A stretch of 64,000 nucleotides of DNA from an uncultured Alphaproteobacteria bacterium (GTDB lineage: Bacteria > Bacteroidota > Ignavibacteria > Palsa-1295): positions 11,659-75,658 of the forward strand of contig CAYOJJ010000007.1 in NCBI GenBank assembly GCA_964404255.1, in the 5' to 3' direction. Each line of letters starts with the position of its first letter. The stretch's first letter is position 1. Below, one piece after another: positions 245-4,841 of this stretch. The notes beneath the pieces were generated by a model. The model did no database searches and was not told the origin of the DNA. It saw only the letters and a list, made by a program, of their open reading frames with translations. Made by a program: the position numbers and the translations under genes.

Positions 245-317
245 TTTTTTACCATCTTGTGCATCTTCACTATGGATACACGGGATATCTTTTTCATTCA
301 CTAAACCAATACCTACA
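245..317 (+). promoter_or_regulatory. Conserved 5' leader/promoter region of small ORF A1; -7-like TAccTTTT; hairpin GTGCATC...GATACAC at 259-281
   Basis: ~73 nt upstream of the ATG is ~80% identical to 4766-4841, upstream of the unrelated-in-sequence paralog A3; ends in acaATG with no SD. Confidence 0.5.
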
Positions 318-830
318 ATGATACAACTCACACCTTTTATGGTAACGATCAATGGTACTGGGCCTAATCCTCTCAGTTACCCCGGGTTTCCATCCGGATC
401 TACCCAGGGAGTATTGATCACTAATCAAGACCCTACCCAGCCAATGCCGGCTATTAGTTGTGATATTTTGCAGGCAGTCGCACAACCCTCTGACCCTAAT
501 TTACAAATAGTTCCGTCGCTCTACGTGGTCTCGGGCACTACACAGGACAGCAATTTTGTGCAAGGTGCTGCCATCTTTGATCCAACCTCCGTTGTCCCAT
601 TCGGACAAATTCCGCCGCCTTCCAGTCAGTCCCTGGACCCGAGTAACTATGGATGGTTTTTCTTTGGTACCTACATTCAGGGACATAATACCTATGCGTT
701 CCCCTCATCTTCGGAGCCGGCGATTACCTATGATACGCAGGGGACAAATGGAAAATTTTATACGATCATCTTAGTAAATGACCACACCAATCCTACGATA
801 GTGTTTACCATCGCGGGAACAAGCGCTTAA
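318..830 (+). CDS. Hypothetical small protein A1 (170 aa). No signal peptide or TM segment. Ser/Thr/Pro/Gly/Asn-rich and beta-rich. No recognisable domain
   Basis: ORF preceded by the conserved leader; paralogous to 960-1493 (shared motifs STQGVLITNxDPTQxMP, DPxNYGWF, GKFYTxxxVNDHTNP). Confidence 0.6.
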   Translation: MIQLTPFMVTINGTGPNPLSYPGFPSGSTQGVLITNQDPTQPMPAISCDILQAVAQPSDPNLQIVPSLYVVSGTTQDSNFVQGAAIFDPTSVVPFGQIPPPSSQSLDPSNYGWFFFGTYIQGHNTYAFPSSSEPAITYDTQGTNGKFYTIILVNDHTNPTIVFTIAGTSA

Positions 831-926
831 CGGTACTGCTGTCAATAGTACTTCAGTTATAGTGAAGGACTTATTACGATAGTACTTTTCAAACCATCCC
901 GGGCATCGCTGTTGTAGATGCTCGAT

Positions 927-959
927 ATCACCTATTCATTTTTAGAACAAAGTATCACA
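927..959 (+). promoter_or_regulatory. Partial copy of the conserved leader upstream of A2
   Basis: gatatcacctattcatttttagaacaaagtatcacaATG aligns with the leaders at 285-317 and 4806-4841. Confidence 0.35.
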
Positions 960-1493
960 ATGGTAACACTAACTCCGATCACTGTTACAGCCGGCACCGG
1001 GCCGGGCTGTGTTAATGGAATGGGGCTGCCAAGTGGCGCATCGACCCAGGGCGTCCTGATCACTAATTCTGATCCTACGCAAGCAATGCCTACCTTGTCC
1101 AGCTTTATTATGATGAATGCTAAGGCACCCGCAAATCCTAAGGCGGCGGTTGGCCCGGCTTTATTTTTTGTATCGGGCTATCTCAATAACGATAACCAAT
1201 TCGTACAAGGGGGCGCTTCATATATCCCAGCGTTCAATGGAATACTCAATTCTATCCCACCTCCATCGAGTTTACCAAGCCCAACGGGCCCAAATGATCC
1301 GGCCAATTATGGCTGGTTCATTTATGGAGCGTCTGTGCAGAGAGATGTTACAACGGCATTCCCTACAACCTCAGTGCCTATGATAACGCACGATATGCAT
1401 GGACCAATGATGGGAAAATTTTATACTCTTACGTTTGTAAATGATCACACTAATCCTTCGGTTGTGGCGACAGTTGTTGGTATTTGCCCTTAG
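960..1493 (+). CDS. Hypothetical small protein A2 (177 aa from the internal ATG at 960; the ORF is open from 918). Paralog of A1
   Basis: Shares motifs with A1. Stop at 1491-1493, 2 bp from the stop of the convergent STAND gene. Confidence 0.55.
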   Translation: MVTLTPITVTAGTGPGCVNGMGLPSGASTQGVLITNSDPTQAMPTLSSFIMMNAKAPANPKAAVGPALFFVSGYLNNDNQFVQGGASYIPAFNGILNSIPPPSSLPSPTGPNDPANYGWFIYGASVQRDVTTAFPTTSVPMITHDMHGPMMGKFYTLTFVNDHTNPSVVATVVGICP

Positions 1494-4336: not shown

Positions 4337-4492
4337 TAGCAGATCTGTGGACTATAAAACCATGAATAGCAAGCTCTAATTGCAAGAATGAGGAGTAGGG
4401 CAGTCTGCCTAAGTGAAAGGTTGGTGAAGAGGTTAGAGGATTTCTCTCTCTGCGGTTCGCAGTAACGGGTTTAATCAGCATCTTTTTATCAA

Positions 4493-4586
4493 TGTCATTG
4501 CGAGCGAAGCGCGGCAATCCAAGACGGTGAGTATATTGCCGAAAGGTCTCGGATTGCCACGTCGTCTTCGACTCCTCGCAATGACA
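4493..4586. repeat. Imperfect nested palindromic element (outer stem tgtcattgcgag/ctcgcaatgaca; inner ggcaatcc/ggattgcc) in the upstream region of STAND1
   Basis: Inverted repeats read directly; a homologous copy is at 8411-8511, upstream of STAND2. Confidence 0.6.
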
Positions 4587-4765
4587 ATCTGGAATAAGCC
4601 TGTCACTGCGAACTCCGCCACGGCGGATGAGCAATCCCTTTAATGTCCTAACAGACCGGCTTATGCCTCTGCCGAGTAAGATATAATGCCCCATATTTAA
4701 CCCTCAACCGGTCTTGCATTTAAGGCTCGTTTGTTGTATGTTTGTATAGCAACTGAGCAGCTTAA

Positions 4766-4841
4766 TTTTTTTACCATCTGGTGTATCATTACCAAGATAC
4801 ACGGGATTCATCTATTCATTCACTCTAAATCAATACCCACA
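4766..4841 (+). promoter_or_regulatory. Conserved 5' leader/promoter region of small ORF A3; -7-like TAatTTTT; hairpin GTGTATC...GATACAC at 4781-4802
   Basis: Aligns with 245-317; the hairpin keeps its pairing with a different loop. Confidence 0.5.

Follow-up and report, generated by a model that had tools for sequence, protein, structure and literature searches.

A conserved leader with a predicted stem-loop precedes three small genes beside bacterial NLR-like genes

Introduction

Stem-loops at the 5′ terminus or within the 5′-untranslated region (5′ UTR) of bacterial mRNAs, such as those of the Escherichia coli ompA leader and the 5′ stem-loops of Bacillus subtilis, stabilize the transcripts that carry them. 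The subject of this report is probably an element of this familiar kind, a lineage-specific and uncatalogued leader that occurs three times in a 64,000-nt stretch of bacterial DNA (the window; contig CAYOJJ010000007.1 of assembly GCA_964404255.1, GTDB class Ignavibacteria). Each copy precedes one of three small open reading frames (ORFs), A1, A2 and A3, which lie beside two genes for NLR-like proteins, NLR1 and NLR2, at the left end of the window (approximately positions 1–9000).

The -7 box of Bacteroidetes promoters has the consensus TAnnTTTG (PMC7366714, PMC6847099), and the 5′ UTRs of Bacteroides have a median length of 32 nt and a mode of 23 nt (PMC7366714). In Flavobacterium, Shine-Dalgarno-independent initiation is favored by an A at -3 and at -13 and by a start-codon region with little structure (PMC6847099). 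The DUF4062 domain that begins both NLR proteins is described as a TIR-like NADase in the searched passages of a 2026 preprint (bioRxiv 10.64898/2026.05.01.722283).

Results

Three full-length copies of a non-coding leader

All three leader copies are on the plus strand and end at the ATG of a small ORF. Copy 1 (245–317) lies directly after the stop codon of a Macro-domain gene at 233 and precedes A1, copy 2 (887–959) precedes A2, and copy 3 (4767–4841) precedes A3. The likeness of the A1 and A3 leaders noted in the original prediction is borne out by blastn, which aligns 245–320 with 4767–4844 at 81% identity over 80 columns (E = 8.5e-13); 60 of 72 leader positions are identical (83%), and the 21-mer TTTTTTACCATCTKGTGYATC occurs twice against 0.01 expected occurrences. 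The A2 copy had been taken for a short one at 927–959 and is a full-length, diverged leader (887–962) that matches the A1 leader at 41 of 73 positions. A covariance model of the leader (R1) run on the window with filters off recovers exactly three copies at 83–94 bits (94 bits for copy 1 and 86 bits for copy 2), and the next best match scores about 18 bits or less. A profile built from the A1 and A3 leaders only finds the A2 leader as its best non-self match in the window and at the expected place, with an E value of 0.42 over 128 kb that is estimated to correspond to ~4e-4 for that upstream region alone.

The copies differ by 1–2-nt insertions and deletions that shift the reading frame. A 10-codon ORF in the A1 leader (272–304; MDTRDIFFIH, ATG GAT ... 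TAA) starts in the hairpin loop, the A3 leader has AAG where this ORF has its ATG, and an ATG at 918 in the A2 leader is in frame with A2 itself. Because the insertions and deletions shift the frame and no upstream ORF is conserved, the pattern of change marks the leader block as non-coding. Attenuation through a leader peptide was ruled out on these grounds.

A separate observation concerns the 3′ arm of leader 3, which has an exact 15-nt copy (AAGATACACGGGATT; estimated chance expectation ~0.01) at 11556–11570. The copy lies within a minus-strand Sortilin-Vps10/BNR gene (10716–13823), so the mRNA of that gene would be complementary to the leader-3 arm.

Leader conservation relative to neutral sites

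The left end of the window contains a tandem duplication (2617–4587 and 6553–8512, 83% DNA identity) that comprises the N-terminal two thirds of the NLR genes and the NLR upstream region, and the leader is the only other alignable piece of this duplication in a blastn self-comparison. Residues 1–573 of NLR1 and NLR2 are 92% identical with a proportion of synonymous differences (pS) of 0.50, a synonymous distance (dS) of 0.83 and a third-position identity of 65%, and the duplicated non-coding DNA 5′ of the NLR genes is 73% identical. The identity between the A1 and A3 leaders exceeds both the third-position value (binomial p = 6e-4) and the value for neighboring non-coding DNA (p = 0.03), which places the leader above the local neutral rate.

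The twelve differences between the A1 and A3 leaders are unevenly distributed (Fisher p = 9e-5, for a partition chosen post hoc). Identity is 9/9 in the T-run, 22/24 in the stem arms, 9/9 in the TTCATTCACT box and 14/16 in the A/C-rich stretch, compared with 4/8 in the loop and 2/6 in the spacer. Loop and spacer together are ~43% identical versus 93% for the arms, box and remaining block, and these uneven values therefore suggest that loop and spacer change roughly as fast as neutral sites and that the other modules are constrained. Despite the synonymous saturation between A1 and A2, the A2 leader keeps its 41/73 identity, the helix, TTCATT and CACAATG. We infer purifying selection on the leader block because it beats neutral sites, its differences cluster, and the A2 copy persists past saturation. 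Part of the A1/A3 leader similarity is inherited through the segmental duplication, which the original prediction did not see and in which the NLR N terminus forms the second constant arm.

A predicted 12-pair stem in all three copies

RNAfold and the RNAalifold consensus give the same helix, one 12-pair stem, in all three leader copies, with z-scores from -1.8 to -3.1. Hairpin 1 (254–286, plus strand) has a 12-pair stem with one C·A mismatch and a 9-nt loop (RNAfold -11.4 kcal/mol, z -2.4 to -3.1), and hairpin 3 (4776–4807, plus strand) has 4 + 7 pairs and an 8-nt loop (-14.6 kcal/mol, z -2.7). The arms originally proposed, 259–265/275–281 and 4781–4787/4796–4802, are correctly placed and are part of this longer stem. 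Standard pairs occupy 89% of the hairpin pair cells versus 17–57% when the partners are slid. The pairing potential is kept with little covariation. The A1 and A3 arms differ at two positions, neither of which is compensated, and the C·A mismatch of A1 is a U-A pair in A3; the two double-sided pair changes (U-A to G·U and U-A to C-G) are both due to A2 and located in hairpin 2 (896–928, plus strand). The description of the hairpin as compensatory was accordingly too strong. RNA folding of the leaders reveals a single simple stem-loop with no alternative fold or anti-terminator pairing, and no Rfam model matches it (see below), which leaves the suggestion of an RNA switch without a counterpart in the data.

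Start region and promoter-like elements

The TTCATTCACT box occupies 293–302 in copy 1 and 4815–4824 in copy 3 (plus strand), at -25 and -27 relative to the ATG, and is predicted to be unpaired. In copy 1 it is followed by an A/C-rich unstructured stretch and the ATG at 318. The last ~30 nt before the AUG of each leader are predicted to be unpaired and carry an A at -3 and -13.

Elements resembling the Bacteroidetes -7 box directly precede each block, as had been predicted. These are TACCTTTT at 234–241 for A1, TACTTTTC at 883–890 for A2 and TAATTTTT at 4763–4770 for A3 (all plus strand); all fit TAnnTTTy with 5/6 consensus matches. The near-consensus A3 element, read by eye as a putative promoter element, lies 2 nt before ACCATC. 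Farther 5′ of A3, outside the conserved block and 105 nt before the ATG, a perfect -7 box (TATGTTTG, 4737–4744, plus strand) is probably the A3 promoter. All of these boxes are at or outside the 5′ edge of the block. TAnnTTTG occurs 41 times in the window and is enriched in the small intergenic fraction, which holds 10 of these occurrences. Readings of the leader as a sigma-54 or extracytoplasmic function (ECF) sigma promoter were dismissed by eye, as key bases are missing.

The perfect box TATGTTTG is also present at 8574–8581, so that it stands ~100 nt 5′ of both A3 and a multicopper oxidase gene. The 5′ region of the oxidase gene ends in TCACAATG, as the leaders do, and CACAATG is for this reason probably a general start context in this organism.

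Searches for the leader in other genomes

A cmscan of positions 1–9000 on both strands with 4227 Rfam models and E up to 1 returned two chance matches to microRNA models, both outside the leaders. The 19-base pattern that is invariant in the three copies had 60 matches in 185,579 species genomes, a set that does not include the source genome, and 0 in viral contigs. All 60 are attributed to chance because they come from unrelated, mostly non-Bacteroidota organisms and show no similarity beyond the pattern. The covariance-model check envisaged in the original prediction was run, together with nhmmer profiles, on 87 loci around NLR homologs and gave no significant leader copy. A set of 80 metagenome loci represents distant relatives (26–40% identity), where the convergent small-ORF arrangement described below is not consistent. 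The best non-self NLR match is 45% identical, and the source organism appears to have no close relative in the databases.

Weak echoes are found upstream of small ORFs in several related loci. The L062 upstream region aligns collinearly with the A1 and A3 leaders with a score of 45 versus a maximum of 31–34 in 107 control upstream regions, and R1 gives it a local match of 10.9 bits (E = 0.04). The TTCATTCACT box with at most one mismatch is present at -28 in L062 and -24 in L065 versus 1 of 68 controls. L150, which encodes an A3 homolog, has a different but analogous upstream hairpin that ends at -32 (z -2.4) and is followed by unstructured CATTTTTCACTTTAACC...ATG (also written TTTTTCACTTTAACC...ATG), and the sequences that precede the two L146 small ORFs resemble each other. 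An architecture of hairpin followed by an open box region seems to recur in related loci, with a 3′ box that appears weakly conserved across genomes and a hairpin sequence that is specific to this lineage. The original prediction made its case depend on further copies in related genomes; for the hairpin these are largely absent, and for the 3′ box their absence is weakly contradicted by L062 and L065.

Organization of the locus

The Macro-domain gene is represented by its 3′ end (3–233, plus strand; Pfam Macro E = 9e-8) and is followed by leader 1–A1, leader 2–A2, minus-strand NLR1, leader 3–A3, minus-strand NLR2 and the multicopper oxidase gene (8669). A1 (318–830, 170 residues), A2 (960–1493, 177 residues) and A3 (4842–5369, 175 residues) are all on the plus strand. 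Each small ORF or ORF pair is convergent, tail-to-tail, with an NLR gene: A2 with NLR1 (1496–4336) and A3 with NLR2 (5384–8272, in an open frame that reaches 8359). The stop codons are 2 nt apart for A2/NLR1 (1491–1498) and 14 nt apart for A3/NLR2 (5367–5386) with no terminator-like site between them, so the convergent transcripts should overlap, and coupling by antisense RNA or transcriptional interference is possible.

A1 and A2 are paralogs with 46% protein identity. Their coding DNA has a nonsynonymous distance (dN) of 0.43, saturated synonymous sites (pS 0.76) and a third-position identity of 38%, and this dN against a saturated dS indicates that both are real genes. The original observation that the A1 and A3 proteins are barely alignable is confirmed, as BLASTP gives E = 3.3 and a comparison of the A1+A2 profile with an A3+L150 profile gives a probability of 0.1%; A3 is unrelated in sequence to A1 and A2. 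Word-indexed searches for homologs of A1/A2 and A3 returned only self-matches. Beyond A1 and A2 themselves, an exhaustive HMMER search of 1.84 billion representatives with the A1+A2 profile recovered a single weak partial match, the 1587-residue repeat protein P0004 (E = 7.8e-06, 8 stretches). P0004 has a type IX secretion system tail, and its ~130-residue repeat carries G-x-P-(S/T)-G-A-S-x-x-G-V-(L/V)-(I/V)-T-N, a motif in common with the N-terminal part of A1/A2. PHROGs, Pfam and PADLOC gave no usable match for the small ORFs; two Pfam matches, A3 to STIV_turret_3rd (E = 0.009) and the L061 small ORF to DUF4232 (E = 0.02), are far under the cut-off. The AlphaFold models are too poor to use, with a predicted local distance difference test score of 43 for A1 and 36 for A3.

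NLR1 and NLR2 have the domain order DUF4062-NACHT-TPR. Pfam detects DUF4062 (E = 4e-13 and 2e-13) and TPR_12 (E = 4e-12 and 1e-36) in NLR1 and NLR2, respectively, and NACHT scores below its curated cut-off (20.9 and 19.3 bits versus 26.7). Both proteins thus combine DUF4062, a NACHT/AAA P-loop NTPase and C-terminal repeats, the composition of NLR-like STAND proteins. NLR1 and the leader-3 side are separated by a 505-nt divergent intergenic region that contains a long REP-like palindrome, and a second copy lies past NLR2. The two copies (4478–4564 and 8396–8482; GTCATTGCGAGCG...GGCAATCC...GGATTGCCACGTCG...CGCAATGAC) are 82% identical, stand 5′ of both NLR genes and match Rfam only by chance to a microRNA model. 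Elsewhere in the window, two large minus-strand ORFs of periodic repeats (46976–51826 and 53938–55668), one built from 63-nt and 576-nt units and the other from 171-nt units, are unrelated to the leader.

A variable cassette between constant flanks in related loci

A convergent small ORF of 126–226 residues with no Pfam or PHROG family is found just past the NLR stop in all 10 outside members of the ~945-residue NLR subfamily that were inspected (L061, L062, L064, L065, two units of L146, L148, L149, L150 and the P0011 contig; L147 overlaps L146 and shows one of its units again), and in 12/12 close family members examined. The close NLR homologs with this arrangement are about 40–63% identical. 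The order Macro, small ORF, NLR is also present in L062, L065, L146 and the P0011 contig. Since DUF4062 is reported as a TIR-like NADase, the Macro domain is a plausible ADP-ribose-handling partner of the neighboring NLR.

Past residue ~573 the TPR parts of NLR1 and NLR2 are about 21% identical and their dS is saturated. The NLR2 TPR part is 40–41% identical to those of P0011 and P0042 from other genomes, and the partner ORF of P0042 is the A3 homolog of L150 (37% identity, E = 5e-13), which was found through gene context only. Among 65 locus pairs, the 4 with homologous small ORFs have NLR C-terminal identities of 0.40–0.66 (mean 0.54) compared with a mean of 0.23 for the other 61; the N termini are equally similar in the two groups (0.57 and 0.59). 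Small ORF and TPR sensor therefore appear to be inherited or to evolve together, with the small-ORF family tracking the TPR type and not the N-terminal module. A comparable break is seen in P0029/P0038, encoded on one 1.79-Mb contig, where an N-terminal identity of 81–92% (62% in the final stretch before the break) falls to 14–21% at the NACHT/TPR boundary, and the paralogous NLRs of L146, P0013 and P0015, show an identity gradient from 98% to 40%. The alignments delineate two constant flanks, the leader and, at the opposite end, the DUF4062-NACHT module, around a variable small ORF and TPR region.

Several partner proteins of the related loci have further features. A small protein with a C-terminal glycine run (QLQGGG, GGGGGPE twice, SGVGG) is found where a Peptidase_C39_2/C70-like gene and a ~220–250-residue gene follow (L065 8875–11124; L146 1932–3933 and 6895–9062; L147 6892–8893; L148 6938–9983). 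L061 (8996–11254) encodes a glycine tail (NGGGGAPDSKRS) and has two genes of similar size and no Pfam match in the place of the peptidase pair; L149 (3131–3811) encodes GGGGGPH, and its contig stops before that place. A1–A3 and L062 have neither the peptidase pair nor a glycine tail. The association of glycine tails with Peptidase_C39_2/C70-like genes suggests C-terminal processing after Gly-Gly. Lipoprotein-type signal peptides start two of the small partner ORFs, L148 6938–7369 (..MSFISC) and L149 3131–3811 (..SLTSSC), and the others, A1–A3 included, have no signal peptide.

Discussion

On balance, the block is probably the promoter-proximal part of a shared 5′ UTR in which a cis-acting stem-loop and an open initiation region would co-regulate the NLR-partner genes A1–A3. 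From 5′ to 3′ the predicted mRNA leader would consist of a U-run and then ACC, an imperfect stem of 12 bp whose 8–9-nt loop varies freely, a 6–7-nt variable spacer, a conserved single-stranded UUCAUU(CACU) box, an unstructured A/C-rich stretch of 15–17 nt that carries A at -3 and -13, and the AUG. Transcription would start at a -7 box of the Bacteroidetes sigma-A type just 5′ of the block. With the near-consensus box 2 nt before ACCATC, the A2 and A3 transcripts would begin with the first stem base, a placement that fits these two leaders and neither A1 nor L146a. Once transcribed, the stem-loop would act in cis on the mRNA, either by stabilizing it from the 5′ end or by binding a trans-acting factor, and the open box and A-rich region would drive Shine-Dalgarno-independent initiation. 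The A1–A3 products would be co-expressed because all three genes carry the same leader. The original interpretation is partly supported as a whole: a shared promoter with a structured 5′ UTR agrees with the non-coding character of the block, its above-neutral conservation, the hairpin in all three copies and the -7 boxes on its 5′ side, and the RNA switch finds no support.

Several observations count against this assignment. Transcription could start downstream of the hairpin. The hairpin covariation comes from n = 3 sequences and is matched by 293 of 500 shuffles. Pair counts do not discriminate the strand (32/36 on the plus strand versus 30/36 on the minus strand), and G·U pairs were dropped as evidence for the plus strand after this recount. 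L062 has no stable hairpin (z +0.4 to +0.6), and no leader copy was found in the species genomes, the 87 related loci, the viral contigs or Rfam. Part of the A1/A3 identity could also reflect gene conversion instead of selection, as the other cassette flank, the NLR N terminus, is equally similar (83% DNA identity).

This last point leads to an account at the DNA level, in which the block is a constant flank. The leader would serve as left homology arm and the N-terminal part of the NLR as right arm for a variable cassette of small ORF and TPR sensor, gene conversion or recombination between tandem units would keep the arms alike, and regulation would be incidental. The homology map, with 245–320/4767–4844 at 81%, 2617–4587/6553–8512 at 83% and nothing alignable between them, has the expected form, and so does the drop in NLR identity from 92% to about 21% at residue ~573 as dS goes from 0.83 to saturation. 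The same mosaic in P0029/P0038 of another genome, the correspondence of small-ORF family with TPR type rather than N-terminal type, and the resemblance between the L146 upstream regions point the same way. A conversion tract is expected to be uniform, however, and the loop and spacer are far more diverged than the rest of the block; the older A2 copy holds the same modules despite neutral saturation, and a 75-nt arm at 83% identity is a poor recombination substrate. A constant flank is unlikely to be the better description, and it is compatible with the 5′ UTR rather than exclusive of it. The absence of function altogether, with leftover paralogy of duplicated intergenic sequence as the only source of the similarity and a hairpin that arose by chance, would agree with its membership in the tandem duplication and its absence at the sequence level from other genomes. 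It is scarcely credible given conservation beyond third-position and neighboring non-coding levels, the non-random placement of the differences and the retention of the A2 copy after synonymous saturation.

The two other alternatives keep a regulatory function and move it to a different molecule or step. If the inverted repeat (ATCTNGTGNATC, 8–9 nt, GATNCACGGGAT) were an operator for a dimeric regulator, the -7/-10 element of an alternative sigma factor could be the TTCATTCACT box, which stands 25 nt from the ATG, and the mRNA leader would be only ~15 nt. Conservation within the block is highest in the palindrome and the box, Bacteroides mRNAs often have short 5′ UTRs (mode 23 nt; PMC7366714), neither strand is favored by pair counts, and an ECF sigma gene adjoins the NLR gene in the P0011 contig. 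The half-site spacing nevertheless varies (9, 8 and 9 nt) where a palindromic operator would have a fixed one, and both A2 half-sites are changed complementarily: the symmetric T-A to C-G change preserves complementarity at the cost of base identity, not the pattern expected of a single regulator acting at three sites in one genome. The box is unlike TAnnTTTG and by eye also unlike the sigma-54 or ECF consensus, and canonical -7 boxes lie 5′ of the block or its counterparts at A3 and, by eye, in L062, L065 and L146a. An operator with its own promoter is thus quite improbable. An intrinsic terminator or attenuator, which would shield the small ORFs from transcription that arrives from upstream (Macro into A1, A1 into A2) or end the leader transcript prematurely unless a factor intervenes, is suggested by a U-rich stretch within 4–5 nt of each stem (AUAUCUUUUUCAUUC in A1) and by the position of copies 1 and 2 between co-directional genes. 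Terminators have a G+C-rich stem followed immediately by a U-run; these stems have few G-C pairs, and the U-rich tract begins 4–5 nt past the stem and is interrupted. A terminator scan called no site at any of these hairpins, copy 3 lacks an upstream gene in its own direction on which termination could act, and no alternative anti-terminator pairing is visible. Termination is very unlikely to be the role of this hairpin.

The shared 5′ UTR and the constant flanks can be combined in a broader proposal, which we advance tentatively as a possibility short of likely. The locus may be a modular immune-type system in which the leader and the NADase-NACHT module are two constant arms around an exchangeable, co-evolving cassette made of a hypervariable small protein and the TPR sensor that recognizes it. 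The leader would set the dose of the small protein relative to the NLR, and tandem units would swap cassettes. The small protein could be a bait, guardee, inhibitor or co-sensor, and dose control may also involve read-through from the convergent small gene into the 3′ end of the NLR gene, with stops 2–14 nt apart and no terminator. Such an organization would be undescribed for bacterial NLR-like NADases, and if the small proteins were cognate ligands or regulators of the sensors, they would offer a testable handle on the control and diversification of bacterial NLR-like proteins. The leader alone is a modest, lineage-restricted cis-regulatory candidate, and its value is as a pointer: it ties three ORFan genes, one of them unrelated to the other two, into one putative regulatory group and exposes a recurrent arrangement around DUF4062-NACHT-TPR proteins. 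The constant-arm and variable-cassette organization of NLR-like NADase loci is the part most worth following up.

Comparison with described systems places the leader near the ompA-type stem-loops. Both have a simple stem-loop near the mRNA 5′ end, predicted only in the case of the leader, followed by an unstructured initiation region, and both would act in cis without a ligand-binding architecture. The leader differs in its unrelated sequence, in a Bacteroidota host with a different RNase set, and in being common to three paralogous or unrelated genes of one locus. Boxes that resemble the -7 element of the Bacteroidetes sigma-A promoter (-33 TTTG / -7 TAnnTTTG; PMC7366714, PMC6847099) lie 5′ of each leader, one perfect (4737) and three near-consensus, and the conserved block is distinct from the putative promoter. 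An A at -3 and -13 and the absence of predicted pairing from about -30 to the AUG match the A-rich, Shine-Dalgarno-less initiation region (PMC6847099). The implied leader 5′ UTR of roughly 65–90 nt is longer than the Bacteroides median (PMC7366714) and adds a conserved hairpin and box. Like the cis-regulatory families of Rfam 15, which include Bacteroidetes motifs and riboswitches, the leader has a conserved stem in a predicted 5′ UTR; unlike them it matches no model and has a single helix, with no multi-stem junction or conserved loop.

The proteins are closest to the bacterial NLR-related STAND and DUF4062 NADases Swarozyc (bioRxiv 10.64898/2026.05.01.722283) and Evangelion (bioRxiv 10.64898/2026.06.25.731849). 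The searched passages of these accounts do not mention a convergent hypervariable small ORF that co-varies with TPR type, and no PADLOC model of known defense systems matches NLR1 or NLR2, whose defense function is putative. As far as those passages describe them, the known NADases share with NLR1 and NLR2 a DUF4062 N terminus, a NACHT NTPase and a C-terminal repeat sensor. This domain order is also that of human NPHP3 and follows the same effector-NTPase-sensor logic as the Avs/bNACHT systems, and the adjacent Macro domain of the window locus fits ADP-ribose chemistry.

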